From: a virus
DNA: 64,000 nt
Reading direction: 5' to 3' (one strand)
IMG/VR virus record: IMGVR_UViG_3300035034_000989
Location: 39,983-103,982 of that record
This document shows, one piece after another, positions 2-61,936 of the stretch. The position numbers and the translations under genes were made by a program. The notes beneath the pieces were generated by a model, which was not told the DNA's origin, ran no database searches, and was given only the letters and a program-made list of their open reading frames with translations. Every line of letters starts with the position of its first letter. Position 1 is the stretch's first letter.

Positions 2-844
2 TGGGTTGATAGTGGTGCAATTCCGCATTTACTTTTCTCTGGTGTACAGGGAGCCGGCAAAACAACTCTTGCCAAGTTGTTGCTCAACGAACTAAAGGCA
101 CACGCATACGATGTTAAGATGATTAACGCATCTTCTAACAACGGTGTTGACTACATACGCGATACAGTCGAAGCATTTGCTACTGTGATGGGGTTTGGCG
201 ATTTCAAATATATTATACTGGATGAGGCTGATTACTTGTCTCCGAACGCACAAGCGGCATTGCGTGGTGTAATGGAAAAGTACTCCAACTCGTTGCGCTT
301 TATACTTACATGCAATTATCCTAACAAAGTGATTCCTGCTATCCATTCACGCTGTCAGGGTTTCCACATTGCAAATCTTGACAAAACAGAATACACAGCA
401 CGCATGGCAGAAATACTTATCACCGAAGGTGTTGAGTTCGATTTAGAGACATTGGATACGTTTGTGAAGACAACTTACCCAGACATGCGTAAGTGTATTA
501 ACTTGTGTCAGCAAAATGTTAAGAACGGTAGCTTACAAGCACCAAACGCAGACGACGGCGCTGGTGAAAGCGATTACCAACTGATGATGGTTGCATTGTT
601 CAAAGAAAAGCGTTACAAAGAAGCACGCGACTTGGTGTGCAAGCAAGTCGCGCCGGAAGAATACGAAGACTTGTTCCGCTTCATGTATCAGAACTTAGAG
701 TTCTGGGCAGACGGCGATGAAAACAAAGAAGATCAGTGCATACTGGTTATTCGTAACGGACTTGTAAAACATGTTTCCTGCGCCGATTCAGAGATAAACG
801 TGTCGGCAACCATGATCGAACTAGAACAAGTAGCAAGGAGCTAA
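2..844 (+). CDS. DNA polymerase clamp loader small subunit (RFC/gp44-like), 5' partial
   Basis: Frame open from base 2: PHLLFSGVQGAGKTT (Walker A), IILDEAD (Walker B), SRC motif. Confidence 0.95.
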   Translation, partial: WVDSGAIPHLLFSGVQGAGKTTLAKLLLNELKAHAYDVKMINASSNNGVDYIRDTVEAFATVMGFGDFKYIILDEADYLSPNAQAALRGVMEKYSNSLRFILTCNYPNKVIPAIHSRCQGFHIANLDKTEYTARMAEILITEGVEFDLETLDTFVKTTYPDMRKCINLCQQNVKNGSLQAPNADDGAGESDYQLMMVALFKEKRYKEARDLVCKQVAPEEYEDLFRFMYQNLEFWADGDENKEDQCILVIRNGLVKHVSCADSEINVSATMIELEQVARS

Positions 845-845
845 T

Positions 846-1145
846 ATGGGAAAGCGAGTAAGAGACACCTTTGTGGTATTGACACACAGTTTTATACCAT
901 CGAGAAAAGACAGAAGTAAGTGGGAAGTTCACGAAGTGTGTAACCTAGTAGATAAAGTCAAAGACAGCTTGACAATCAGCGCAACCTGTATTATAAATAT
1001 AACACAGAAGACAGTTGTTAAGAATCGTGCAGGCGGCAAAGGCGATACAGAATATCATGACTTGGTTGACTACCTAGTTAAAACTTACCCGGATCAATTC
1101 AAGGCAATAGGATATGGCGACGAGACTGGAGATTCACAACAGTAA
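846..1145 (+). CDS. hypothetical protein
   Basis: ORF directly after the clamp loader, AGGAG RBS. Confidence 0.7.
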   Translation: MGKRVRDTFVVLTHSFIPSRKDRSKWEVHEVCNLVDKVKDSLTISATCIINITQKTVVKNRAGGKGDTEYHDLVDYLVKTYPDQFKAIGYGDETGDSQQ

Positions 1146-1599
1146 AGAATACAAGATCATAGCTGACTTTTATGGACATGGTCGTGCTGAACGATCGCAG
1201 ATTCCACTGCTACATCACATAGATGAAGGACTCGAATTCTTAGCAGAACAGCAAGCAAGCAAAAATACCATGCTTGCGTTTTGCTTACACCCGATTGTAC
1301 AAAACAATGAACTTATTGATGTGTTCTGGAGCGATGGCAATTTGCTAGCTTTAGAATACAGTCAGCGTGCTAACTCTTATTTGTGCAAGCCCGAAACTGA
1401 TTATGTAAGAACACTGGACGACATACAAGAACTGGTCGGACCAATGACACACGATTGCTTGCTCATGCTATTAGCAGACAAACGCCAAAATCAAAAAGAC
1501 TTTATTGAGTATCACAGAGGAACACACGATCGTTCCCAAGAGCTAGATAGATATTTTAATTTATGGCTTGCTTACATACACCTGGAGTTAACAAAATGA
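1114..1599 (+). CDS. hypothetical phage protein, possibly HD-like
   Basis: LLHHIDEG, FCLHP and LADKRQN resemble a degenerate HD fold. Confidence 0.6.
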   Translation: MATRLEIHNSKEYKIIADFYGHGRAERSQIPLLHHIDEGLEFLAEQQASKNTMLAFCLHPIVQNNELIDVFWSDGNLLALEYSQRANSYLCKPETDYVRTLDDIQELVGPMTHDCLLMLLADKRQNQKDFIEYHRGTHDRSQELDRYFNLWLAYIHLELTK

Positions 1600-2198
1600 A
1601 AGAAAAACTTATACTCACCGATTGCGATGGTGTCTTGCTCAACTGGAGACAAGGCTTCCTTGATTGGCTGCCCGACCACATTTCTAGTACAGCTTGTCCT
1701 ATCAAACTCAAGCAGTACGACTTCAGCGATGCGTTTGACTTAGATGCAGATGCCCTGCAACAGCTTGCACACGATTTTAATGCGTCACTTGACATAGTGC
1801 GTTTAAGCCCTTGGGTCGATGCCATAAAGTATGTCAGGCTGTTAGGTGAGCAAGGTTTTAGATTTCGTGTGTTCTCTGCAATGGGCGACAAGCCTATCAG
1901 TCAAGTGCTAAGACGTCAGAACTTGCAAATACTGTTTGGTGACTTGTTTGATGAAGTAACATGCATACCTGTAGGAGCAAGCAAGTACAGCTTGTTGAGC
2001 AAGTACGAAGGCACTGGCTTATTTTGGCTGGAAGATCATGTTAGCCATGCAGGTGATGGGCACGACTTGGGCTTGCAATCCATACTGGTGTCGGACATTA
2101 CCAATTTGCACTACACAGATATTCCGTTTAAAAGAGTGTCAGTGAATAGCCCTTGGAAAGAAATATACCAGATTGTCATGCAGGATTATAACAGCTAG
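1596..2198 (+). CDS. HAD-family phosphatase / 5'-nucleotidase-like
   Basis: ILTDCDGVL motif I, WLED motif IV; GGAG RBS before ATG 1596. Confidence 0.85.
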   Translation: MKEKLILTDCDGVLLNWRQGFLDWLPDHISSTACPIKLKQYDFSDAFDLDADALQQLAHDFNASLDIVRLSPWVDAIKYVRLLGEQGFRFRVFSAMGDKPISQVLRRQNLQILFGDLFDEVTCIPVGASKYSLLSKYEGTGLFWLEDHVSHAGDGHDLGLQSILVSDITNLHYTDIPFKRVSVNSPWKEIYQIVMQDYNS

Positions 2199-2211
2199 AA
2201 ACTACACCCAC

Positions 2212-2240
2212 AAAAAAGCACGCCTCGGCGTGCTTTTTTT
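2212..2240. terminator. bidirectional intrinsic terminator
   Basis: AAAAAAGCACGCC-TC-GGCGTGCTTTTTTT between convergent genes. Confidence 0.9.
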
Positions 2241-2251
2241 ATGACTAGCGT

Positions 2252-3007
2252 TTACTCGGCGCCTTCGCCGTATATTTCAAGTACAGCTTGTACAATAGGA
2301 TCACGTTCGATGTCGCCACGTGCAAACATGGTAACGCCCATGCCATGCGCACCACCTTGTGCTTCTAACCGTTCGACAAAATCTTTTAATCCGTTTTCTT
2401 CAAAACCTCTATCATGTTGATTCAAATCACCAGTAACAGAACAATATGAACCGTTGCCCATTCTAGTTAACAACATCTTAACTTGGTTCGGGGTAGCATT
2501 CTGTATTTCATCTGCAATGATGTAACAATCTTTAAACGTCCTTCCCCTCATGTAGGCAAGTGGAGATATTTCAATTATTCGGTCTTCAAGCATGGCCTTG
2601 ATATCGTCAGGGCTAAAATATTCTTCAAAGACATCCATGATAGGTCTGACCCATGGTTCCATTTTTTGATTCAAATCACCTGGTAGAAAACCGTGTTGCT
2701 CATCAACCGATACTGCCGGGCGTGTAATAACTATTCTTGATATTTCTTGATCTTTCAGAAGTCTAATCGCATTCATTACTGCAAGTAAAGTTTTACCAGT
2801 ACCAGCAGGTCCGAGCGCAAATGTAATACGAGTGCTAAAGTCTTGCAAATCGCATACATAATTTTCTTGAGCCAAGTTACGTGGTATCATTTCAACTTTG
2901 CGAAGTCTAACCTTAAATGGGGTTTTCTTCGAATCGTCAAAATCGTAAACTTGACTTTGGGCACCAACTGTTCTTTGTGCTTGACTAGTCTGCTTTTTCT
3001 TTCTCAA
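2252..3007 (-). CDS. phoH: PhoH-like ATPase
   Basis: GPAGTGKT, ITRPAV, GFLPG, YMRGRTF, DEIQN, GDLNQHD. Confidence 0.97.
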   Translation of the reverse strand: MRKKKQTSQAQRTVGAQSQVYDFDDSKKTPFKVRLRKVEMIPRNLAQENYVCDLQDFSTRITFALGPAGTGKTLLAVMNAIRLLKDQEISRIVITRPAVSVDEQHGFLPGDLNQKMEPWVRPIMDVFEEYFSPDDIKAMLEDRIIEISPLAYMRGRTFKDCYIIADEIQNATPNQVKMLLTRMGNGSYCSVTGDLNQHDRGFEENGLKDFVERLEAQGGAHGMGVTMFARGDIERDPIVQAVLEIYGEGAE

Positions 3008-3199
3008 TTTGTATCTCCTAGGGGTTTATTAATCAGAATACGAGGCGATGGGTTGTTACCCGTATTAAGAGCATGGAAGTAAAAGATGAAGTGAAGTGTT
3101 GTTTTTATGTTTATCATCTACATATACTTATCTTCTGAAGATTAATTTTGTCTAGTAAAAGAAGGTTTTTCTTAATATTTTAGCTGTGCATTAGTTATT

Positions 3200-3207
3200 G
3201 ATAAATA
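3200..3207 (+). promoter_or_regulatory. T4-like late promoter GATAAATA
   Basis: Octamer 26 nt upstream of ATG 3234; recurs before several genes. Confidence 0.65.
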
Positions 3208-3233
3208 CATAAAAATAACGTTTAGGAAGGTTC

Positions 3234-3788
3234 ATGGTTTACGGATTAGAAGACGTAAGAAACACTTTAGCAAGTATTACACAGCAAGACTACCTCATAG
3301 ACATGCTCTATGAGTATGAACGTACTCTTGATGAGGTAGGAATCAAAGCATATCGAAACTGGTATGCCGGCGAATTACTCGATGGTCCGAGGCTAACAAA
3401 ATACTGGATGACATGTAAATTTATGTATCCGGAAAAATTGATGCCTGATCCAGATGGTGCATTGAGACTTACCAAAATAGGTTGCGAAGTCAATTTTACA
3501 AAAGACATATTAAAGAAGCCGGTCAAGATTACTTCACCGCGCGATTGGAAAAACAATAACACCAAAGAGGCCAAGATCGAAGAGAAGCCAGTTTGGGTGG
3601 TAACAATTGCAATGCCAATCAAATACATCACTGATAACTTTGATCAAATCAACGCCTACCTAGAAAACGACGATGATCTCATGGACAATGAGCAGATCGC
3701 AGATGGGTACAGCGAAGATGAAGAACCTGCAAATGCAATGAGTTCAGATGATGAAATCATGGACACTGATTTCGACGAGGAAATATAA
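3234..3788 (+). CDS. conserved jumbo-phage hypothetical protein with acidic tail
   Basis: NWYAGELLDGP and MPDPDGALRL are typical of this phage group. Confidence 0.75.
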   Translation: MVYGLEDVRNTLASITQQDYLIDMLYEYERTLDEVGIKAYRNWYAGELLDGPRLTKYWMTCKFMYPEKLMPDPDGALRLTKIGCEVNFTKDILKKPVKITSPRDWKNNNTKEAKIEEKPVWVVTIAMPIKYITDNFDQINAYLENDDDLMDNEQIADGYSEDEEPANAMSSDDEIMDTDFDEEI

Positions 3789-3789
3789 C

Positions 3790-4482
3790 ATGAGAAATAG
3801 TCTTAAGGGCACCATCCTACCAAAGATTTCAATAGACGAGTTTACTCCTAAGTCGGGAGTAACAGAAGAAGTGGCAGTTGTTGCACTTTATGCAATTGAC
3901 GACGCCCCAGCACAAGACCTTAACAGCTATGTGCAACGTGGTTATGTCGATGTCATAGACGCAGAGGTTAGTCCTAATCCAGATGAAGAGGGTAATTACC
4001 TTATCTTTATTGAGATTGCACGTGACAAGAACTTTCTTGATGTACTGCTTATGCTCATAAAGGATATCGAGAACGTGACCGGACCGATGGATTGGAATGT
4101 TGCACCGTTCAGCGCAGAGCATTCGTATGCAATAGACGATCCGGGACTTGTTCAGCATCTCACGTTCGGTAGTGTTACAGAAAGCATCAAGCGTTTTCTT
4201 AAACCAAGTGATTTGCCTAATGTGATATTCGAGAATGATATTATTAACTTTGGTTCTGTACAAGGCAAACTAAGAGACTTTGGCCAAGTTGATCGCATAC
4301 TCAAGAACTACACTCTTAACGAGTCGCTGATTGACTTGGACTCATATGAAGCTTCGTCACTAGAAAGCATGCTAGGGTCAGAATATCAAGTTGCCAAATA
4401 TGGTAGTAATGTGTTCATTGGTCATGTCACAAACGAAAATGCCGTTGTACTGAGCAATTTAATTTTTACTCACTCTCGCTAA
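3790..4482 (+). CDS. hypothetical protein
   Basis: Long ORF coupled to the previous stop, GAGG RBS. Confidence 0.75.
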   Translation: MRNSLKGTILPKISIDEFTPKSGVTEEVAVVALYAIDDAPAQDLNSYVQRGYVDVIDAEVSPNPDEEGNYLIFIEIARDKNFLDVLLMLIKDIENVTGPMDWNVAPFSAEHSYAIDDPGLVQHLTFGSVTESIKRFLKPSDLPNVIFENDIINFGSVQGKLRDFGQVDRILKNYTLNESLIDLDSYEASSLESMLGSEYQVAKYGSNVFIGHVTNENAVVLSNLIFTHSR

Positions 4483-5344: not shown

Positions 5345-5692
5345 ATAGCATGCTTTTCTGATGTCTTTGCATTTGCAGAAACGGCGCATGGCATCGATTG
5401 GAACACAGCAAATGATGTTTTCTTTAATAACGCATTTGAATACCAGCAAATGAGCGAAGCAGTATTAGGCTTACATGCACTTAGCTATATATCAGATGCC
5501 GATATCAAGAGAGCCGGTGTTCAAGACTATGAGGCGCGGTTACTTGTTGCAGAACAAGCCGGTAAAATCACAGGGCTGTTTACCAAGGAAGAAGTAGCGA
5601 ACATGACCTCCGCTGCCAAGTCATACATCATTACCGCTGAGTACCTCGAAAGCATCAACGCAACCGGTTCGGTGCTAGTTGAGTCGTATTAA
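5315..5692 (+). CDS. hypothetical protein
   Basis: ORF with duplicated N-terminus MATKQ-MATKQ. Confidence 0.7.
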   Translation: MATKQMATKQIACFSDVFAFAETAHGIDWNTANDVFFNNAFEYQQMSEAVLGLHALSYISDADIKRAGVQDYEARLLVAEQAGKITGLFTKEEVANMTSAAKSYIITAEYLESINATGSVLVESY

Positions 5693-5778: not shown

Positions 5779-8031
5779 ATGTCATCAAGTTCACCACAAG
5801 AGTTGTTCCAACGCATACTGTCTAATAGCATGGACATACAAAGCAAGAAACAAGTTATTTACTTGTCTCCGGAAGTGTTTACACATGCATTAATGCGTGA
5901 GAAAACAGTTGCAGACATGATTGCAGAATTAGGTGGCGATCCTAAAATGGCAAAAGAAGAGTTAGAGAAAGCAATTGAAGCACAGCCTAAAGCAGGCTTT
6001 GGCGGCAACAGTGGCAAAATGTCTACTACCATAGACAACATTATTAAAAAGCAGACAGCAATGCTTGCAACTGCCGATGCTTCGGACGTCACTGAAAAAG
6101 ACGTATTGTTTGCACTGATACTTGATATCATTGATGCAGACCTTACAGATAATCCAGCCAAAGATATCTTAGCAAAGCATGGCGCAACACGCGATGCAGT
6201 CGACGACTACCGCATGCAAAACGGCGATGAAGCAGAGTCTATTCTAGACAAGTACTGTGTCAACCTTAACACAGAATCAGCTAACGGTCAAATCGATCCA
6301 GTTATTGGTCGCGAGCAAGAAGTTGCTGATACAATCGAAATACTAGCACGCCGCAAAAAGAACAACGTTGTTTATGTAGGCGAGCCAGGTGTAGGTAAAA
6401 CTGCAATTGCAGAAGGACTTGCACGTCAAATTGAAAAAGGCGATGTGCCAGAAGCAATAGCTGGCATGGTAGTTTACTCGCTAGACGTTGGCACACTTGT
6501 TGCAGGCACCAAGTTCCGCGGAGAACTTGAAGAACGCTTTAAGAAGATACTTAAAGAAGTCGAAGCCAAAGGCAACGTAATAATGTTTATCGATGAGATG
6601 CACATGATCATGGGCGCAGGCGCTACAAGCGGTGGCACCATGGACGTTAGTAACATGCTTAAACCTAGCTTGGCAAACGGCAAGATCAAACTTGTTGGTG
6701 CCACAACAGAAGATGAGTTCGTAGAGCATCTTGAGAAAGATCGTGCATTGATGCGTCGGGTGCAGAAGATTACAATTAACGAACCTAACGTGCCAGACAC
6801 CAAGCGCATAGTCCACGGCATTGTCAAGTACTACACTGAATTCCACGGTGTTGAATATGACGAAGGCGTAGTTGAAACAGCCGTTGATTTAGCAGATCGT
6901 TACATCACACAGCGATTCTTTCCAGACAAAGCAATTGACATCATAGATGCAACTGGTGCCACTGCTAAACTTGCAGGAATAAAGTCAGTAGACATTGCGC
7001 GGGTTATTAGCGCAGTGAGCAAGATGTCTAAAATTCCAGTTGAGATGATTGACGTTAAAGAAAACGATTTGATCAAAAGCATGCCAGCAAAAATGCGCAA
7101 TGAAGTGTTCGGGCAAGACCACGCAATTAAGGTTCTTGAAGATGCTATTATCATTGCGCAGTCAGGATTGCGTGATAGCAACAAGCCGATTGGTAACTTC
7201 TTATTTGTTGGGCCAACTGGCACTGGTAAGACACACATTTGTAAACGACTAGCGGCCAACATGGGAACCAAGATGGTACGCTTTGATATGTCGGAATACC
7301 AAGAACGTCATACAGTATCTAAGTTAATTGGTGCTCCTCCAGGTTATGTAGGACACGGTGACGGCAAGAACGGCGACGGTCAGTTAATTTACGAAGTATC
7401 TAACAATCCTAACTGTGTGCTACTGCTAGACGAGATTGAAAAAGCGGCTCCGGAAGTTGCACAGCTATTGCTACAGGTAATGGACGATGGTCGTTTAACA
7501 TCTGCAAGCGGTAAAACAGTTGACTTCAGTAACGTTATACTGATAATGACTTCTAACTTAGGAGCCGCAGATGCCGACAAGCAAGGTATTGGCTTTGGTG
7601 CAACCGACTTCAATGCAAGCGCAATAAACGAAGCAGTTAAGAAGTACTTTCCACCAGAGTTCCGAAATCGTGTAGATCACATCATACAGTTCAACAAGCT
7701 TGAGCAAGAGCAAGTTGAGACACTGGTTGATGTTGAAATGCAAAAAATGAATGCCGTGCTTATTAAGCAAGGCGTACAGGCTACCATGTCTTTAGAAGCT
7801 CGGGCATGGTTGGCTAAAGAAGGCTACCAGCCAGCACTAGGTGCGCGACCTTTGAGTCGTGTGTTTGAGAGCAATGTTAAGTTACCCGTATCTAGAGAGA
7901 TACTGTTTGGTAAACTAGCAGGCGGTGGCATTGTGCATATTGACTTTGATAACACCAAGCAGGTAATACTGATTGATGTTACAAACGAAGGTGCGATAGT
8001 TGAGCTACAAGCTGATGAACTAACTGCTTAA
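5779..8031 (+). CDS. clpA: ATP-dependent Clp protease ATPase subunit ClpA-like
   Basis: Two AAA+ modules (GEPGVGKT, GPTGTGKT), GYVG pore loop, IGF ClpP-docking loop, no ClpB middle domain. Confidence 0.95.
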   Translation: MSSSSPQELFQRILSNSMDIQSKKQVIYLSPEVFTHALMREKTVADMIAELGGDPKMAKEELEKAIEAQPKAGFGGNSGKMSTTIDNIIKKQTAMLATADASDVTEKDVLFALILDIIDADLTDNPAKDILAKHGATRDAVDDYRMQNGDEAESILDKYCVNLNTESANGQIDPVIGREQEVADTIEILARRKKNNVVYVGEPGVGKTAIAEGLARQIEKGDVPEAIAGMVVYSLDVGTLVAGTKFRGELEERFKKILKEVEAKGNVIMFIDEMHMIMGAGATSGGTMDVSNMLKPSLANGKIKLVGATTEDEFVEHLEKDRALMRRVQKITINEPNVPDTKRIVHGIVKYYTEFHGVEYDEGVVETAVDLADRYITQRFFPDKAIDIIDATGATAKLAGIKSVDIARVISAVSKMSKIPVEMIDVKENDLIKSMPAKMRNEVFGQDHAIKVLEDAIIIAQSGLRDSNKPIGNFLFVGPTGTGKTHICKRLAANMGTKMVRFDMSEYQERHTVSKLIGAPPGYVGHGDGKNGDGQLIYEVSNNPNCVLLLDEIEKAAPEVAQLLLQVMDDGRLTSASGKTVDFSNVILIMTSNLGAADADKQGIGFGATDFNASAINEAVKKYFPPEFRNRVDHIIQFNKLEQEQVETLVDVEMQKMNAVLIKQGVQATMSLEARAWLAKEGYQPALGARPLSRVFESNVKLPVSREILFGKLAGGGIVHIDFDNTKQVILIDVTNEGAIVELQADELTA

Positions 8032-8050
8032 TCCCTTTTGCAGTTGTTGG

Positions 8051-8085
8051 AACGGTGTGTCATTAAAGTGGCCCACCGTTTTTTT
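8051..8085 (+). terminator. intrinsic terminator
   Basis: AACGGTG...CACCGTT hairpin followed by a T-run. Confidence 0.75.
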
Positions 8086-8087
8086 CT

Positions 8088-8095
8088 GATAAATA
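8088..8095 (+). promoter_or_regulatory. late promoter GATAAATA
   Basis: Octamer 26 nt upstream of ATG 8122. Confidence 0.65.
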
Positions 8096-8121
8096 CATTA
8101 AAATTTACGAGGTAATAATTA

Positions 8122-8583
8122 ATGAGCGGATCACGCAAATCAGTCATCATACTAACAAGCACTCAGAAAGAATTAGAAGTAACTGGGCAGGCTGTTAAGG
8201 GTGACAGCTACTATGGATACACAGATGGCATCCATACAATACAGATTACTTATTTCAACTTCACAGGCGGATTCGGAATGCAAGGTACACTTGCACTTGA
8301 TCCACAGCCAGAGGATTGGTTCTGGATCAACCTAGACGGCATAGTAGACTTTGACGCAGTGCCTTACTTGATGTTTCCTAAAGACCCGTTGGCACCTACT
8401 GGCGCGGAGTCAATTGAAACAAGTATACTTGGTGATACCGGAACAGAAGCATTCACGTTCAAAGGTAACTTTACCTTCTTGAGAGCAATGGTAACTCGCG
8501 AATACATTGACCCTGCACCAGTACAGCCAACAGACGGTACATTCCACTTAGGATCAATTGACAAAGTTTTACTTTGCATATAG
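8122..8583 (+). CDS. conserved phage protein, beta-rich, possibly structural
   Basis: KGDSYYGYTDGIHT and FKGNFTFLRA; late promoter; GAGG RBS. Confidence 0.7.
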   Translation: MSGSRKSVIILTSTQKELEVTGQAVKGDSYYGYTDGIHTIQITYFNFTGGFGMQGTLALDPQPEDWFWINLDGIVDFDAVPYLMFPKDPLAPTGAESIETSILGDTGTEAFTFKGNFTFLRAMVTREYIDPAPVQPTDGTFHLGSIDKVLLCI

Positions 8584-38968: not shown

Positions 38969-40425
38969 GAAATGACTTTCACACCATACCTGGTTTCAAA
39001 CGCATCAGCATCAGCTCGAGTGTTAACCATAGGATGACCCTTGATGTTCAAGCTGGTGTTAAGCAACATTGGGCATCCTGTACGCTCATGCATTAATGTT
39101 AGCGCATGGTGCAACCCCGGGTGATCCGATTTATTAACTGTCTGCACTCTGCTGGTATAATCAGCGTGTACTATAGCAGGAAACTTATCAGGGTACCTAC
39201 ACGGAAAGGTGTATTGCATATAAGGACTGGACGTTATCCGGCCCATATCGAAGTAATCGTTTGCATGCTCTTCTAATACAACAGGAGCAAACGGGCGAAA
39301 CTCTTGACGCTTTTTGATTTGATTAACACGATCTTTGATGTCCGTGCCACGCGGATCAGCAAACAGCGACCTGTTACCAAACGCTCTGGGGCCGAATTCT
39401 GCGCGTCCTGACGCTACTCCTACAATGGAGTTGGTCAGTATCTCATCCACTAGTCTTTGAGATGGGTACTCTCCACTGATGTCAGATCCGATGTAGGGGC
39501 CAGTCCATTTAACTTGCCTGTTATTAACACTGAGACAAGCGCCAAGACTACTGCCAGCATCGCCAGGATTAGGCATAATCCAAGTATTGCGATAATAATC
39601 AGGGATGCAACGATTAGCAGAACAATTGAGAGAAACACCACCCATATACACAAGATTATCCGACGGATAGACTCGCTTACTGTGTTGAAAAACTTCATGT
39701 AACTTCCTTTCTAATGTAACCTGTGCCGAAGCGGCAATATCGTATTCGTTGGCGCCTGGTAAATAATTCAGGCATCCCCGATGCAGGTTAACTTTTGTTT
39801 TTGCGAGCTTTCTTGTATAAAAGAAATCTTGCTCCATTTGGTCAGCATAGATAGGGTTACCATATGCCGCCATGCCCATAAGTATATACTCATCTTCGTT
39901 AGGTTTCAACCCCACTCGCTGAGTCATTGCAGTGTAAAACAAACCGAGGCTGTTAGGATAACGCTGTGTGAACAACTTAGTTAACTTGCCGTTATTGTAC
40001 TTCCACATGGTAAGACAATCCCATTCGCCTATCGCATCTGCAACAATAACACATGCATCGTCGTATCCGGATGTAAATGCTCCCGCCGCCGCATGAGACT
40101 CATGATGAGAAATACAACGTATCGGCACATCGTGGTAGCCAAACGCATCGCGTATTTTAGTTTCCACATGATCTTTTGCGAATGCTTTATCGTACTGCCC
40201 GCTATACACTTGTCTTACGCGCTTTAATAACGGCTTCTCGTAGAATGCAATGATATCCGGCTTGCCAAAGCTGTTGACTTCCTCTATCAGTCCTGGTGCA
40301 AGGTTCTTGTCGTTTTTGATTCTGGAGTACCTTTCCGAATGAGCGCCGAACATGATACAACCGTTATGTACAACTGATACAGAGGCGTCGTGTGAGAATG
40401 CCGACACACCAACAATATTAGTCAT
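38965..40425 (-). CDS. carbamoyltransferase (NodU/CmcH/TobZ family)
   Basis: HDAS, HHESH, DAIGE, GGVSLN, GRAEFGPRAFGNRS, RPFAP, LNTSLN. Confidence 0.96.
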   Translation of the reverse strand: MTNIVGVSAFSHDASVSVVHNGCIMFGAHSERYSRIKNDKNLAPGLIEEVNSFGKPDIIAFYEKPLLKRVRQVYSGQYDKAFAKDHVETKIRDAFGYHDVPIRCISHHESHAAAGAFTSGYDDACVIVADAIGEWDCLTMWKYNNGKLTKLFTQRYPNSLGLFYTAMTQRVGLKPNEDEYILMGMAAYGNPIYADQMEQDFFYTRKLAKTKVNLHRGCLNYLPGANEYDIAASAQVTLERKLHEVFQHSKRVYPSDNLVYMGGVSLNCSANRCIPDYYRNTWIMPNPGDAGSSLGACLSVNNRQVKWTGPYIGSDISGEYPSQRLVDEILTNSIVGVASGRAEFGPRAFGNRSLFADPRGTDIKDRVNQIKKRQEFRPFAPVVLEEHANDYFDMGRITSSPYMQYTFPCRYPDKFPAIVHADYTSRVQTVNKSDHPGLHHALTLMHERTGCPMLLNTSLNIKGHPMVNTRADADAFETRYGVKVIS

Positions 40426-51048: not shown

Positions 51049-51350
51049 TGCAAGAAGTTCGAATTATCGACAAGCCATCTAGACTGTACAATATCATACA
51101 CCGTGCGTTTGATTACAACCAACAACAAACCGTATGGTTCTATTCTAAGAAAACCAAAGCTCGTTTAAAAAAGCATTCGGACTTGTGTTTTGATCATGCT
51201 CATCGCATGATCAAGAAACAAATGCAAGATAGCAACTGGGATCGTTATAGAATTGGATTGCATGGTCGGGTGAGCAATGGTGACTTTCGCTTTAAGATTG
51301 TAAATTTCCAGATCAAAAGAATCGATGACGAGATTACCAATGAAACATAA
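51048..51350 (+). CDS. hypothetical protein
   Basis: TAATG coupling. Confidence 0.6.
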   Translation: MQEVRIIDKPSRLYNIIHRAFDYNQQQTVWFYSKKTKARLKKHSDLCFDHAHRMIKKQMQDSNWDRYRIGLHGRVSNGDFRFKIVNFQIKRIDDEITNET

Positions 51351-51708
51351 AATGTACTGTGTGTTTGCTAAAGAGAGTGTCAAGAAGATGAACGGAGTGC
51401 GCGGAAAAATATGTACTCAAGCCGGTCACGCCTACCTGCATACCTTTCTTGACTCGTCAAAGTCATTCCCAGAACTCACAGACGCATACATCAACAGCGA
51501 CCACGCCTATAAAATTACGCTGGTAGTTGATACAGTTGACGAATTACATGTGCTTAGAGACGCATACCAAGGCGTGTGTGCCACCAATTTGATAACTGAC
51601 AAAGGGTTCACTGTGTTCAAAGAGCCCACTACCACATGCTTGGGAATTGGTCCCATCAGCGAAGATCTAATTGGTGATGATCTTGCTTCCATTAAAACCT
51701 TTTGTTAG
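51340..51708 (+). CDS. peptidyl-tRNA hydrolase, PTH2 type
   Basis: GKICTQAGHA, KITLVV, ITDKGFTVF..PTTTCLGIGP. Confidence 0.9.
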   Translation: MKHKMYCVFAKESVKKMNGVRGKICTQAGHAYLHTFLDSSKSFPELTDAYINSDHAYKITLVVDTVDELHVLRDAYQGVCATNLITDKGFTVFKEPTTTCLGIGPISEDLIGDDLASIKTFC

Positions 51709-54853: not shown

Positions 54854-55582
54854 ATGATATCGCATGACGAAGAATACCAAGCACTCATAAACACAATCCG
54901 TGATGAGAAAACGTGGAAACAACTGAGACCAGGTGTGTTTAGCAAACGTCGGTTCGTGTCGATTAATGTACAATCTTTTATTGTACTAGACTGCATGCCG
55001 GATAAACTGATATTATCACTGAATTGCCTCTTTCCGGAAATTGGGTTTAACCGAACTCGAGGTTGCGCAGAAGGTTTCTTAAATCCTTACAGTTATGAAA
55101 TGCATGTCAAGTACACACCCGAAGACGGACTAGTGTACACCAAGCTGTCATGCTCGGGAATAATGACCACCACCGGTAAGGTCGAACATGTATCGATTGA
55201 AATTCCTGATAACGCCCACATGACAATGGATGCCTACACAAAAAGAATAGAAGATGATATCAACGATGGATACAATTCGATGTCTGCACAAGAACAGTCT
55301 TTTTATATGTTGAGCGGTGGGGAGATGCGCGGGCGTGAAATACTGAAACAACTCCACAAACTGCATCATGAACTTGAGCTGACTTGTCGGCGTGCATGGA
55401 AACGCAAACGCAAGATGCGTATCTTTGAAATTGCAATAGGGCAATGGATAGACCAAACTCATTTTCCTCACAAGTACTCGAAGTGGGGCTTCGTTGGCGC
55501 CCACACGTTTAACTTTGTTGTAACCTATCACGTGGTACAAGTTTACCTGCAAACTTTGTTACTAGGAATATTCTTGCTATGA
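54854..55582 (+). CDS. hypothetical protein with C-terminal TM
   Basis: Long ORF. Confidence 0.6.
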   Translation: MISHDEEYQALINTIRDEKTWKQLRPGVFSKRRFVSINVQSFIVLDCMPDKLILSLNCLFPEIGFNRTRGCAEGFLNPYSYEMHVKYTPEDGLVYTKLSCSGIMTTTGKVEHVSIEIPDNAHMTMDAYTKRIEDDINDGYNSMSAQEQSFYMLSGGEMRGREILKQLHKLHHELELTCRRAWKRKRKMRIFEIAIGQWIDQTHFPHKYSKWGFVGAHTFNFVVTYHVVQVYLQTLLLGIFLL

Positions 55583-56439
55583 ATATATTATTAGACAGCT
55601 TGTTCACCAAAACCGGAATACAAAAAGATACATTTGTCAAGTCGGTGCGTGCAACAGGGCACAGCGTATATGTTTCCAAGTACCGTAGAAACATCACCGA
55701 TTTTGAAGTGGGCATACCACGCGACGAACCCTTGCTGGTGTACGGTTCAATACAGTTTGTAGAGGATGCGCTAAAGAACTTTAAATGCGCAGTTGCATTC
55801 TATAGCCAGCGAATTTTTAATTGTTCGTACTTCATGTCGCATTTGCCTATGACATTGTTTGTCAATTACGATGCAGAGTTTTGTCCAGTTGGTGTGTATC
55901 AGGAACAGCGAGCACGCCGAAAACATTACAACGAATGGAGTACTGCTGATGCTAAACACTACTTTGTGAGATCAGATAGTGGCCGCAAGCTGTTTGCAGG
56001 CAAGGTAATACCTACCGAACAAATGCATTGCTTCGCCACCGAAAGCCTCTCTAAGGACAGTATCGTATTGGTTGGTTGTGCCAAAGACATACGCGCTGAG
56101 CATCGGTACTTCATACACCGAAAAGAAATTGTGTCAAGGTGTATCACACATACAAATGGCAATGTATTCACAGTGCCGGATAAAAAAATAAGCCTGCAGG
56201 CGAACATTCCGTTGGACAAATTTGCTCTCATGGTTGCCGACATGGTCGATGAACTAGGTCACATGGACACCATGTATGTTCTTGATATTGCATCTTACAC
56301 AGAATATCAACATGGCAAGCCCAAGATTGGCATCATGGAGTTCAATGCCGCTAGCACATCAGACATGCACAATTGCAATGTAACTGCAATCTTTAGCGCA
56401 ATGGCAGAATGCATCGAAAAAGAAAATAGTTGTGATTAA
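55579..56439 (+). CDS. ATP-grasp-like protein (DUF4343/R2K type)
   Basis: YGSIQF, FVRSDSGRKLFAGKV, EHRYFI, VLDIA, IMEFN. Confidence 0.75.
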   Translation: MNILLDSLFTKTGIQKDTFVKSVRATGHSVYVSKYRRNITDFEVGIPRDEPLLVYGSIQFVEDALKNFKCAVAFYSQRIFNCSYFMSHLPMTLFVNYDAEFCPVGVYQEQRARRKHYNEWSTADAKHYFVRSDSGRKLFAGKVIPTEQMHCFATESLSKDSIVLVGCAKDIRAEHRYFIHRKEIVSRCITHTNGNVFTVPDKKISLQANIPLDKFALMVADMVDELGHMDTMYVLDIASYTEYQHGKPKIGIMEFNAASTSDMHNCNVTAIFSAMAECIEKENSCD

Positions 56440-58996: not shown

Positions 58997-60793
58997 ATGC
59001 CGTTAGTAGATCTATCACTCAAGCTATTTAATGTGGTACCAACAAGCCACAATCCTGTGCCAGCCAAAGCGCACGTTGATTTTAACAGTGGTATTATTAT
59101 TGCACAGGATGCATGCTGGGCAAGGCACGACATTCTTAACTTCCTTGATGCTAAACGTCTGTCAGGCGAAGACCTAAACAAAACATGGCACACCATATGG
59201 GCCAATGTAGACTCAACAAGCAAAGCATCTATCACTAGCACAATAATGGGCTACCTTAACGGGCTTGGTAATAAACTAAATAAAGAAATTCAGGTGCCAA
59301 GTGAAGTGATTGGCATTGAAGACTTGGGAATAAAGTTTGTAACCGTACAGGCCATACCCGAATCCGAACTGGGGCCACGTGCTCTAAACATGCTTCAAAG
59401 CGGCATTGCATTAAAAAGCCAAACCATTACTGACCTGTTCGATGTATTAAGCGCAGTCAAGTATCAGTGGACCGGTAAAGAAGATGTTCGCAACAAAGAA
59501 GCCATTGTTATTTTAGCAGACCGTCACAAAGTGTATCCCAAGGATCCAGTTGACGTGTTGCGTTACACTGTGTTTAAGGCAACCGGTAGCGCCATGCTTA
59601 TAAAAAGCGGTGGGGCCGTGCGACAGATTAAAGAATCAGCGTTCAGTCCAACTGATGCGTTTGAATCATGTGGCGAAGCACGAATGGCAGAAGTATTCAA
59701 TCGCTTTAAACCGTTGTTCCTTGCATACAAGTCCGGTGGCGACTCTGGTACCAAAAAGATGATAAATCGGATTGCCAAGCTGAGCAAGACCAAGCACAAG
59801 CCATTGCCAGTTAATGCACTAAATGAAGTTACATCGCGTTCACTCAAGCTCGAGGACTTACACTGGCTCAAGAATGCAACACCATTTGCCCTGTGTAAAG
59901 CATTGCAGGCGTGCTATACACGCATGAACAACAGCAGAACTATATTTGCGTACCATATACGAAATGGTAAGAGCTGGTACAAGGAAGCCGCTAACAAGAC
60001 AGACACAGTCGATATCAACTACAACTTTGATCTAATTGCAAACGAATTGAAATTGCGTGTTAACACAGAAGGTCACAAGATATTTATACCGGAAGGCATT
60101 GAGTATGCCCTACCGACTTCCGAAAAGATGATGATTGGCAATGTGCCTACTGGAACTAAATTCACTGCCAATCAAGTGGCCGCAGGTATTTACTGGGAAA
60201 ACTCTTGGGGTGCTCGTGACTTGGACTTGTCGTCCATTGACGTTGGCGGAAACAAAGTAGGATGGGACTCGCGTTACAGCGGGCAAGACTCTGCAATCAA
60301 ATACTCGGGTGATATCACCGACGCAAAAAACGGCGCGGTGGAATATATAAATGTAAGTTCCAAGCTCAAGAATGCCACAATGGTACTTAATAATGTGTAT
60401 AGCGGTGAACCTGATTGCAAGTACAAGATTATCGTTGGCAAAGGTGCCAACATAAGCGACAAGTACATGCAAGATCCGGGCAAGGTGTGGGTGGATGAAC
60501 ACACCCAGTCGGTCAAGCAAGAAAGCATTATCGGCTTATTCCTTCCTGAAGAAGGTGATAAGGTATCATTTGTCATGCTTAACACCGCATGCGGAACAGG
60601 CAGTGCGTCAAGCGGGCGCGAACATACCATACAGTTCAACAAGGCCATGGTAGAGCAGTACAGCAACCAGTTTACTCTAAATTTATTGCTAGAATACATA
60701 GGATTTGAGTTGACAGACACTGCGAATGATGCTACAATAGACTTATCGCTAGACAACTTAGAGCGTGACACGTTCGTTAAACTGTTTATCTAA
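58997..60793 (+). CDS. 598-aa protein: helical N-region + C-terminal TerD-like domain
   Basis: GIYW...DLDLS...YSGDITDA.NGAVE matches TerD-type motifs; FNRFKPLFL, PTSEK.M.GNVP.G. Confidence 0.75.
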   Translation: MPLVDLSLKLFNVVPTSHNPVPAKAHVDFNSGIIIAQDACWARHDILNFLDAKRLSGEDLNKTWHTIWANVDSTSKASITSTIMGYLNGLGNKLNKEIQVPSEVIGIEDLGIKFVTVQAIPESELGPRALNMLQSGIALKSQTITDLFDVLSAVKYQWTGKEDVRNKEAIVILADRHKVYPKDPVDVLRYTVFKATGSAMLIKSGGAVRQIKESAFSPTDAFESCGEARMAEVFNRFKPLFLAYKSGGDSGTKKMINRIAKLSKTKHKPLPVNALNEVTSRSLKLEDLHWLKNATPFALCKALQACYTRMNNSRTIFAYHIRNGKSWYKEAANKTDTVDINYNFDLIANELKLRVNTEGHKIFIPEGIEYALPTSEKMMIGNVPTGTKFTANQVAAGIYWENSWGARDLDLSSIDVGGNKVGWDSRYSGQDSAIKYSGDITDAKNGAVEYINVSSKLKNATMVLNNVYSGEPDCKYKIIVGKGANISDKYMQDPGKVWVDEHTQSVKQESIIGLFLPEEGDKVSFVMLNTACGTGSASSGREHTIQFNKAMVEQYSNQFTLNLLLEYIGFELTDTANDATIDLSLDNLERDTFVKLFI

Positions 60794-60801
60794 ACGTTCA
60801 A

Positions 60802-60880
60802 TGCGGTGAAAGCAACGGACCGATAACCCGGAGATGCTATGGGGAACATGTTCCTTGTGCTATTCGCACGCACCGCACCA
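60802..60880 (+). ncRNA. aberrant tRNA-like RNA with CCA end (CCGATAA, Ile-like loop)
   Basis: TGCGGTG/CACCGCA + CCA; three internal hairpins; non-canonical T-loop. Confidence 0.55.
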
Positions 60881-60893
60881 GTTGGAGTTAGAT

Positions 60894-61115
60894 ATGAGTA
60901 AGATACTCAAAGTAAAAATCAAAAATCGTGTAGAGTTTGAATGCGGTGTGTTTGGTGGAGAGGACTTGATTCAACACTTTCCTAACTTGCTCAGCACAGG
61001 TGCAGATGTAATATATCAAAGCGATATGTGGTACCTGTGCGATGTAGATAAAAACATAATGTCCGACTGTGCATTTTTTGCACCCGAAGAGATGCAGTAC
61101 TTAGAAATAATTTAA
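60894..61115 (+). CDS. hypothetical protein
   Basis: GGAG RBS. Confidence 0.65.
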   Translation: MSKILKVKIKNRVEFECGVFGGEDLIQHFPNLLSTGADVIYQSDMWYLCDVDKNIMSDCAFFAPEEMQYLEII

Positions 61116-61122
61116 CAGTTTC

Positions 61123-61325
61123 TGGGCAAAGGTAGTTCCTATAAAAAAATTATTGGAAATTATTACTACTCGCCCAACCCTACTTGACATAGAGTGTTCC
61201 TATAAACGCAGAAATCGGGTTTCAAAGCCCGAACAAAATACACTCCGTCAAATGCTTTAAAAATTTAGGCAAATAAGGTTCCTATAAACATGAATTATAC
61301 TCATACCAGAAATACCTTTCGCCTA
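61123..61325 (+). repeat. array of three structured repeats with invariant GTTCCTATAAA (61123-61176, 61184-61251, 61266-61325)
   Basis: Each unit: 5-bp stem, AWA/C internal loop, ~6-bp stem, TCCTATAAA; stems covary. Confidence 0.85.
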
Positions 61326-61386
61326 TTACCAATTCACTTGTGTAGCACACAACTCGTACAATCAAATAAATATCAAGTTACAATAC

Positions 61387-61626
61387 AAAGGCTGTCTCAA
61401 CTGTTTTCCTGGTTGATATGTGCCGGAACAAAATGTCAGTGCCGCTGTTTCGGTAATCGAATGCGTAATATCTGCAAAGCCGAATTAAGTTATGTAAGCA
61501 AGTGGAGTACCCGGGCTTACTGTCAATACTTAAAACTGCGAGGGGGATGGAAAACTGTATCATGGCTATGTTCCCTGCCAAGAATAGACGCTAGCACAGG
61601 CGCGATTCTATTCGGAGACAGCCTTT
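61387..61626 (+). ncRNA. ~240-nt structured RNA candidate
   Basis: 12-bp terminal helix AAAGGCTGTCTC/GAGACAGCCTTT; internal GTTTTCC/GGAAAAC. Confidence 0.55.
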
Positions 61627-61651
61627 TTATTTTAACTAACGGAGTAGAAAA

Positions 61652-61936
61652 ATGAGTTTACAACCATTGCATGATTATGTAATAGTACAAGCAAAACAAA
61701 AACAAGTATCCAAGTTGATACATGTTGCAGACCCAGCCGATGGTGACACAGGCATTGTTGTTGCAGTTGGTCCAGGTGAAATGTTAGCAAATGGCACACG
61801 TGGCGACATGTCGGTAACAGCAGGACAAGAAGTAATCTTTGCAAAAGATATACTGCGCAAAGACAAGCAGGATGATGGCACCGAGCATTACTGGATGCGC
61901 ATTGTTAATGTAATGGGAATACTGAGCGAAAAATAA
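61652..61936 (+). CDS. groES: co-chaperonin GroES
   Basis: LQPLHDYVIV, GIVVAVGPG, V.FAK. Confidence 0.9.
   Translation: MSLQPLHDYVIVQAKQKQVSKLIHVADPADGDTGIVVAVGPGEMLANGTRGDMSVTAGQEVIFAKDILRKDKQDDGTEHYWMRIVNVMGILSEK

Follow-up and report, generated by a model that had tools for sequence, protein, structure and literature searches.

Small RNAs with a conserved handle adjoin a TerD-fold protein in phages and flavobacteria: a probable Ro60/Y RNA-like particle of non-homologous parts

To our knowledge, among well-studied bacterial particles only Ro60 with its Y RNAs uses small noncoding RNAs to adapt a protein for RNA surveillance. In Salmonella, the rsr-yrlBA-rtcBA operon encodes Ro60 together with the bacterial Y RNAs YrlA and YrlB (Chen et al., 2014, PMC4201824; Hughes et al., 2020, PMC7790460). 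In YrlA, a tRNA-like domain is joined to the stem that binds Ro60, and the Ro-binding word of Y RNAs, GNCGAA(N)G / GGUCCGA, lies in the terminal helix (PMC4201824). Here, we characterized a locus of comparable layout in a 64,000-nt stretch of viral DNA (IMG/VR record IMGVR_UViG_3300035034_000989, positions 39,983 to 103,982), referred to below as the window. The locus consists of a gene for a 598-amino acid (aa) protein, here termed X, and an array of three short intergenic units, U1, U2 and U3, which a preliminary description of the window had likened to a Ro/Y system. We found that U1-U3 are real structured RNAs of a widespread family, the "handle RNAs," that this family accompanies X in phages and flavobacteria, and that the two probably make up a particle resembling Ro60/Y RNA, of non-homologous parts and with a role in RNA damage control. 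The window forms the final 64 kb of a 104-kb record from lake water, which is probably a fragment of a giant phage because its CheckV completeness is only 29%.

The three units share a common plan: a 5-bp helix, an internal loop of A-W-A opposite C, and a 6-bp helix closed by G-C and U-A, within which the loop starts with UCCU and ends with U. The architecture, stems, loops, distal hairpins, U3 mismatch and gene-to-array spacing given in the preliminary description are all present in the sequence, with U1 beginning 330 nt past the X stop codon, and the units fold as it had described. The U1 fold has an energy of -15.4 kcal/mol (z -3.9 vs. shuffles) and its loop contains UUGGAAA, a word that reappears in the same RNA subtype at distant loci. 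U2 folds at -18.4 kcal/mol (z -4.5) with a G+C-rich distal hairpin, UCGGG/CCCGA, and U3 (z -2.7) has a small distal ATGA/TCAT hairpin and a U-U mismatch at the first pair of the inner helix. The word GTTCCTATAAA occurs three times in the window vs. 0.05 expected, and is absent elsewhere in the whole 104-kb record. No Rfam 15 family reaches its gathering score in the window, and a search of the array against Rfam at E≤10 returned only sub-threshold c4-a1b1 and isrK, and no Y RNA family. ARAGORN found no tRNA in the window and the Rfam tRNA model RF00005 none in the record; U1-U3 are devoid of a tRNA-like body.

Homologs of X were drawn from a protein database (1503 matches), IMG/VR (65 loci) and metagenomes (80 loci), and from species genomes of GTDB, where 80 of 204 stretches were kept (Chryseobacterium, Tenacibaculum, Winogradskyella, Soonwooa, and a Chitinophagaceae bin). 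Individual loci are designated by L numbers. In viral and metagenome contigs, alignment-based scans gave X loci and single-protein scans gave none, and a nucleotide search of the phage collection produced no match. In a plain word search, many of the phage loci had TTCCTATAAA just upstream of X. A covariance model, R1, was built from 31 units of similar length chosen by a pairing filter. The aligned units are invariant at G-U-U-C-C-U-A-U, at the 3'-side U-A-C, and at the initial A of the internal loop. RNAalifold recovered the 5-bp and 6-bp helices de novo, and double compensatory changes were observed in 9 of the 11 pairs, the remaining two being the invariant closing G-C and U-A. The covariation score was 0.81; shuffling the partners lowered it to 0.28, and sliding the 3' partner to 0.17 or less. 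Since the 31 units had been picked by pairing, a separate test was done using only the word GTTCCTAT. Within 1.74 Mb of loci, 242 of its 365 plus-strand sites were followed within 160 nt by a perfect 11/11 partner in fixed geometry, vs. 4 of 377 in a control with shuffled downstream sequence. The word is found 365 times on the gene strand vs. 12 on the other. Moreover, G-U pairs outnumber A-C pairs by 20 to 2, and the structure therefore belongs to a plus-strand transcript and not to duplex DNA. No description of the RNA-X family was found, either in Rfam 15 or in the literature open to search, which does not cover Burroughs and Aravind (2016, NAR 44:8525), nor did full-text searches on RtcB with TerD, on the loop word, or on RtcB-linked RNA motifs in flavobacteria reveal one. 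Several known RNA types were considered and dropped: a kink-turn (tandem G-A pairs are missing), a T-loop (UUCCU is incompatible with UUCRA), type III antitoxin or CRISPR repeats (the unit sequences differ and covary), and a self-cleaving ribozyme (no known core is present).

Linkage between the RNA and X is strict. R1 gave 101 matches in the 509 kb of phage loci plus window and 233 in the 1.05 Mb of the 80 bacterial loci. All significant matches (E≤0.01) share the strand of X, and almost all of them are found either in the ~500 nt preceding its start or shortly past its stop. In five complete genomes (4-5.6 Mb), where only the top candidates of a first pass were scored, 18 of 18 matches at E≤0.01 formed a single cluster immediately upstream of X. 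Among 121 evenly sampled Flavobacteriales genomes, five contained X and the same five contained the RNA, adjoining X, with no discordant genome. The preliminary description had assigned the units to the 598-aa protein and had proposed co-occurrence under a covariance model as a check; both the assignment and the check are borne out by these counts. The linkage persists at 25-30% protein identity to the window's X, where only GUUCCU remains of the universal core and the two bases after it depend on the clade (UCCUAU, UCCUAA, UCCUUU, or UCCUCU). The longer word TCCTATAAA, earlier regarded as invariant, is thus universal in its GUUCCU portion, with differences between clades in the bases that follow.

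The position of the units relative to X varies among clades. In the 80 bacterial loci, all units occupy the 5' region of X, and 15-30 nt separate the last of them from the start codon. In the clade of the window, four metagenome relatives with X proteins 61-64% identical carry 4-6 units downstream of the gene. Units also occur 3' of X in L030, L031/S-CRM01, L032, and L059, and phage S-CBWM1 has one unit 2.5 kb from X, between tRNA genes. One of the four metagenome relatives, L156, which comes from a 319-kb contig, is fully syntenic with the window (X, tRNA-shaped RNA, small open reading frame [ORF], array, 240-nt RNA, groES). U1 and U2 are nearly identical in the two, while the adjoining ORF has diverged: the L156 ortholog of U1 (5638-5690) shows A-U/G-U exchanges, and U2 has identical handle stems and a preserved distal hairpin. 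L156 contains an extra unit whose inner helix is different and fully compensated, and its fourth unit corresponds to U3 of the window, with the same inner helix including the U-U.

The distal part of the units, a plain loop or short hairpin in U1-U3, takes three tRNA-related forms in relatives. In L022 (4681-4798 and 4804-4923), the handle encloses a permuted tRNA-like body made of a T-arm, a tetraloop-capped acceptor helix and a D-arm, and in L038 it encloses a whole tRNA-Ile-like sequence. In the third form the tRNA ends are normal, the handle replaces the anticodon loop, and the outer handle helix is capped by a triloop. The Rfam tRNA model gives 50 bits to one such RNA, in L077 (5586-5692), and the design is also present in L005, L013, L018, L072, L074, L080, L128, L132, L136, and L139. 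Accordingly, two circular permutations exist, one with its ends at the handle (L022) and one with its ends at the acceptor stem (L072, L077). tRNA-like bodies were found in many bacterial and some phage loci. The typical bacterial order is rtcB, a handle-bearing tRNA-like RNA, two to three plain handle hairpins of conserved subtypes, and X.

The gene preceding the RNAs in Chryseobacterium encodes an RtcB ligase (Pfam 2e-33). By tblastn, 75 of the 80 bacterial loci (±6 kb) contain an RtcB-like gene, which in most of them immediately precedes the RNAs and ends 300-600 nt before X. tRNA genes are the other recurrent neighbor, with 3-19 of them within 5-6 kb in 16 of 65 phage loci (at least three within 5 kb in each) and in several Tenacibaculum and Winogradskyella loci. 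In the cultured cyanophages S-CRM01 (g174) and S-CBWM1 (gp22), X is annotated as hypothetical within tRNA arrays, and unannotated handle RNAs lie beside it. In S-CRM01, the 48-aa ORF g173c (L233 3288-3434, minus strand) overlaps plus-strand handle matches at 3245-3303 and 3313-3374, and is probably not a gene. Small RNAs in such surroundings have a precedent: the species 1 and 2 RNAs of phage T4 (rnaC, rnaD), and other stable tRNA-like RNAs from tRNA clusters of phages, are small, some have tRNA-like ends, and like handle RNAs they are encoded among or beside phage tRNA genes. We know of no conserved handle or dedicated partner protein for these RNAs, and no sequence or model match connects them with handle RNAs. 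In L090 (Tenacibaculum), a PrfH-like RF-1 domain protein is encoded upstream of X (3531-4226) and an RNase T-family exonuclease directly downstream (7718-8299), and both are kept in four to five Tenacibaculum/Winogradskyella loci. In Chryseobacterium sp. S-02 (L072), a 1333-aa protein with helicase and restriction endonuclease parts (120-4121, minus strand) is encoded beside rtcB; its match to PDC-S37, a candidate defense family of PADLOC (1e-120), and to Hhe suggests that this rtcB-RNA-X cluster lies in a region resembling a defense island.

X comprises an N-domain (residues 1-370) of alpha/beta and helical-repeat character, a TerD-fold beta-sandwich (residues ~385-550) and C-terminal helices. 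In the model of the N-domain, a small alpha/beta part is accompanied by helical repeats and by a beta-hairpin with a long helix; the AlphaFold predicted local distance difference test (pLDDT) is 79 for full-length X and 84 for residues 1-380. A TerD-like C-domain had been proposed in the preliminary description, and structural comparison agrees with it: VIA-align gave Z 9.9 (root-mean-square deviation 3.4 over 139 residues) to 2qz7_B and Z 9.0 to 2kxt, and Foldseek a probability of 1.00 to 3ibz, 2qng, and 2kxt. X also keeps DLDLS-like and GD.T...G..E-like motifs. Judged from the predicted structure, the C-domain has the TerD fold. None of 37 family members matches the Pfam TerD model PF02342 at E≤1, and a nearby ESM Atlas cluster carries PF02342 in 22% of its members. 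Unlike TerD proteins of tellurite-resistance (Ter) clusters, X has an extra 370-aa N-domain, and its genomic partners are RNAs, RtcB and tRNA genes; terB, terC, terY, terZ, and telA have no homolog among its annotated neighbors. X itself matches no family of Pfam (E≤0.01), PHROG, NCBIfam, or PADLOC, and a PDB sequence search with the profile of its family yielded chance-level matches only. Against PDB folds, the N-domain reached at best Z 6.3, to short helical pieces (L29, ARM-like), and Foldseek returned nothing at E≤0.001. The family itself has a uniform architecture; it comprises 2494 (E≤1e-3) or 1184 (1e-30) clusters at 50% identity, and the ESM Atlas labels its clusters as hypothetical and mostly viral. 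Across 37 diverse members, most of the invariant N-domain residues are basic or polar (R236, K238, N257, H267, R322, N323, K377), a pattern compatible with, but no proof of, nucleic-acid binding by X. Phage proteins of 680-750 aa in BFVD also match the N-domain (Foldseek 0.90-1.00), namely A0A8S5LVH0, H6SUA9 (Campylobacter virus IBB35), and A0A291I9M6 (Lactobacillus phage LpeD). Going by the models, all three are probable distant members of the family, none with a function, and the family may therefore reach Campylobacter and Lactobacillus phages.

The resemblance to Ro60/Y RNA extends over several levels. Like Ro60, X is a protein of ~550-600 aa with a helical N-terminal part and a separate C-terminal domain, and it occurs in bacteria and phages. 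Ro60 binds metal through its vWA domain, and TerD domains bind Ca2+. In both systems one to several small RNA genes adjoin the protein gene, and rtcB adjoins the bacterial loci. Handle RNAs, like Y RNAs, have a conserved bulged helix formed from the RNA ends and a variable distal module, and at least one RNA per bacterial X locus carries a tRNA-like domain (T-arm, D-arm, acceptor), as YrlA does. On its 5' strand the handle reads G-R-C-A-W-A, which is similar to the GNCGAA word bound by Ro. However, the handle has an invariant A (31 of 31 units) in place of the G, and hence lacks GNCGAA, and has in addition the invariant loop word GUUCCU. The C-domain of X is a TerD beta-sandwich, unlike the vWA domain of Ro60 with its metal ion-dependent adhesion site. 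The TROVE model PF05731 matches none of 37 X family members at E≤1, while recovering true Ro60 genes in the same genomes and in control genomes, and hhalign gives a probability of 0.15% for the X family profile vs. a Chryseobacterium TROVE protein. Ro60, whose N-terminal part is a HEAT-repeat ring, was not among the 50 N-domain fold matches listed, and a missing match is no proof of a different fold. Of the Ro/Y likeness originally claimed, the layout therefore stands (bulged handle, variable or tRNA-like module, adjoining genes, rtcB) and homology is not supported, there being no Pfam or Y RNA family match; likewise, the structural kinship with Ro60 that had been considered finds no support in the fold matches listed or in the type of C-domain. 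Judged by the features tested, X and the handle RNAs are rejected as members of the Ro60/TROVE and Y RNA families; the functional resemblance stands. Canonical Ro60 is encoded alongside X in two of five Chryseobacterium genomes, and X is therefore no replacement for Ro60 there. As a separate observation, a Flavo-1 RNA (RF01705, 62 bits) lies at L150 2410-2497 (minus strand) in Chryseobacterium G005, ~50 nt downstream of a TROVE/Ro60 ORF (841-2361), and might be the Y RNA of that Ro60; a second TROVE locus, L149, has no Flavo-1 match.

A dedicated partnership of protein and RNA is by far the simplest reading of these data, because the linkage is exclusive, strand-specific and conserved, the loop word drifts clade by clade, the association is independent of position, and the handle is fused to tRNA bodies in two permutations. 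We propose that the handle, with both helices, the A-W-A/C loop and the single-stranded 5' UCCU, serves as the docking site for X, and that the handle RNAs are expressed as discrete, small, stable molecules. The variable distal part, which ranges from nothing through a short hairpin to an entire tRNA-like body, would be the working end, presenting or recruiting a partner as Y RNA modules do for Ro60. Because of the analogy with Ro60/Y RNA and the RtcB and tRNA-array neighbors, we suggest that damage control of RNA, and of tRNA most likely, is the probable role of the particle, be it repair or quality control. The neighboring ligase RtcB would be its partner in flavobacteria; for an infecting phage, its task would be to support the translation apparatus. 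A more specific version is put forward only tentatively: X and its RNAs may be an independently evolved second class of Ro/Y type, with a new RNA-binding fold joined to TerD, in which the handle is a portable tag on tRNA bodies, RtcB matures or recycles the tagged RNAs, and phages protect tRNAs under host attack.

Several observations weigh against a Ro60/Y RNA-like particle. PDB fold searches found no recognized RNA-binding fold in the N-domain of X, and TerD domains are known to bind Ca2+, not RNA. In three phage loci with intact flanks (L004, L017, L060), no unit is detectable within 5 kb of X. The window's 104-kb fragment is devoid of RtcB and of canonical tRNA genes, so that the repair context is borrowed from relatives. 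Lastly, the 5' position of the bacterial units fits a leader or operator role as well.

This last point leads to the alternative that survives best, namely that the units are cis elements of the X transcript, acting as an operator or leader by which X or another factor regulates translation or stability of X, or as RNase processing sites. Autoregulatory leaders bound by the product of their own gene are common, as in ribosomal protein operons, and a same-strand location in the 5' region of X, ending 15-30 nt before the start codon, is what all 80 bacterial loci and, as regards the region, most phage loci display. We nevertheless consider this explanation unlikely. The window and the four relatives closest to it have the array downstream of X, behind the tRNA-shaped RNA and an ORF, which argues against a pure 5'-leader role in this clade, and the 3' units of the four loci named above and the remote unit within the S-CBWM1 tRNA array are equally out of place for a leader. 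Fusion to tRNA-like bodies in two permutations is foreign to an operator, and three conserved paralogous subtypes per locus, each with its own loop, exceed what one would need.

A second alternative, which we hold to be quite unlikely, is that the handle is a processing signal, with X as an endonuclease that cuts the internal loop and RtcB rejoining the ends, thereby circularizing or re-permuting the RNAs. Permuted tRNA genes mature via a circular intermediate, a helix-bulge-helix is the type of signal read by archaeal splicing endonucleases, and the handle is joined to tRNA-like RNA in both permutations (L022 vs. L072 and L077). The chemistry would also suit, since RtcB joins 2',3'-cyclic-phosphate/3'-phosphate ends to 5'-OH ends (PMC7824862), and an RtcB-like gene is within 6 kb of X in nearly all bacterial loci, as noted above. 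In their permuted tRNA-like bodies, a helix-bulge-helix that joins the ends, and a nearby RtcB, the loci indeed recall the permuted tRNA genes of Cyanidioschyzon merolae and archaeal bulge-helix-bulge (BHB) splicing. Unlike a BHB, however, the handle places 3 nt opposite 1 nt between helices of 5 and 6 bp and does not have the 3-4-3 arrangement; no splicing endonuclease is present, and removal of the handle yields no mature anticodon loop. The last statement comes from L077, where splicing to a normal anticodon loop was considered and dropped as excision of the hairpin leaves a 16-nt loop. Furthermore, X shows no sign of a nuclease fold or of acidic catalytic residues, phage loci have X and the RNAs without an adjacent RtcB, and simple hairpins such as U1-U3 would give no more than tiny circles. 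RNAs that are simply bound by proteins are commonly circularly permuted as well.

It is just as improbable, in our estimation, that the phage RNAs are decoys or sponges for host tRNA-targeting nucleases or tRNA-binding defense proteins, with X a mere chaperone or stabilizer. The tRNA-rich surroundings of a quarter of the phage loci (16/65) are in keeping with such a function, as are tRNA-like bodies without an anticodon loop, the sporadic, accessory occurrence of X in bacteria (5/121 genomes) and the single bacterial locus beside a defense-type helicase-nuclease. However, the most conserved portion of these RNAs is the handle rather than the distal part, U1-U3 have no tRNA-like body with which to act as decoys, and the same system is chromosomal in bacteria, beside a repair ligase. 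Finally, DNA-level elements (promoters, recombination or replication sites, protein-binding palindromes) are very improbable: TATAAA is akin to AT-rich promoter boxes and U2 starts with TTGACA, but a T4-type late promoter and a sigma-70 promoter in U2 were both dropped, as the AAA after TCCTAT is not conserved in the family and the TTGACA-TATAAA gap is 11 nt and not 16-18, and the preponderance of G-U pairs, the strand counts of 365 vs. 12, and confinement of the motif to the array within 104 kb speak against the DNA promoter element that the preliminary description had allowed for.

If the proposed Ro60/Y RNA-like particle is real, it would be a second system with the same layout built from unrelated parts, and the layout of handle, variable or tRNA-like module and RtcB neighbor would be a convergent solution. 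The protein family concerned is large (~2500 clusters at 50% identity) and devoid of annotation, and the system is accessible in cultured organisms, including Chryseobacterium species and the Synechococcus phages S-CRM01 and S-CBWM1. The handle RNAs add a family without an Rfam 15 match, account for many "empty" intergenic stretches in phage tRNA regions, and expose at least one probable false ORF annotation.

Table 1. Features of the X locus, with positions in the window.
Feature	Position	Strand	Basis
Gene X, 598-aa protein	58997..60793	+	ORF list
Sigma-70-like promoter match TTGACA-17 nt-TACAAT, upstream TG	60710..60738	+	Consensus scan, 11/12 positions, pattern match only
tRNA-shaped RNA, encoded CCA	60802-60880	+	Fold; alignment with L156
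73-aa ORF, phrog_25670	60895-61115	+	PHROG 3e-17 over residues 25-92 of longer ORF call
U1 TGGGC-AAA-GGTAGT-TCCTATAAA...ACTACT-C-GCCCA	61123-61176	+	R1 62.8 bits, E 2e-14
U2 TTGAC-ATA-GAGTGT-...ACACTC-C-GTCAA	61184-61251	+	R1 38.8 bits, E 2e-7
U3 TAGGC-AAA-TAAGGT-...ACCTTT-C-GCCTA	61266-61325	+	R1 42.1 bits, E 2e-8
~240-nt structured RNA before groES	61387-61626	+	Fold -75 kcal/mol, z -2.5
groES	61652-61936		Pfam search

The remaining features of the locus are listed in Table 1 and follow one another in the order X, tRNA-shaped RNA, 73-aa ORF, U1-U2-U3, ~240-nt structured region and groES. The tRNA-shaped RNA and the ORF between gene and array are not mentioned in the preliminary description. 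The former starts 8 nt past the X stop codon and has a 7-bp terminal stem, non-canonical arms, and no handle; neither ARAGORN nor the Rfam tRNA model calls it a tRNA. Its syntenic counterpart in L156 has a longer middle arm and no encoded CCA. The phrog_25670 ORF is likewise kept in L156. The sigma-70-like match falls within the 3' end of gene X and, from its sequence, could drive the downstream RNA cluster. The ~240-nt RNA has a 9-12-bp closing helix, GGCTGTCTC/GAGACAGCC, followed by a T-run, and an Rfam search with it gave no match. In the L156 counterpart (~5943-6178) the closing helix is GGTTGTCTC/GAGACAACC, with a compensatory change from C-G to U-A. This RNA is a syntenic neighbor and at most a candidate member of the X system. 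A 121-aa ORF (61290-61655) that overlaps U3 and the ~240-nt RNA has no family match and is probably spurious. The wider neighborhood in the window is translation- and RNA-related and includes, besides tRNA-shaped RNAs and groES, a PTH2-type peptidyl-tRNA hydrolase (51325-51708) and an R2K-clade ATP-grasp protein (55579-56439) encoded a few kb upstream.

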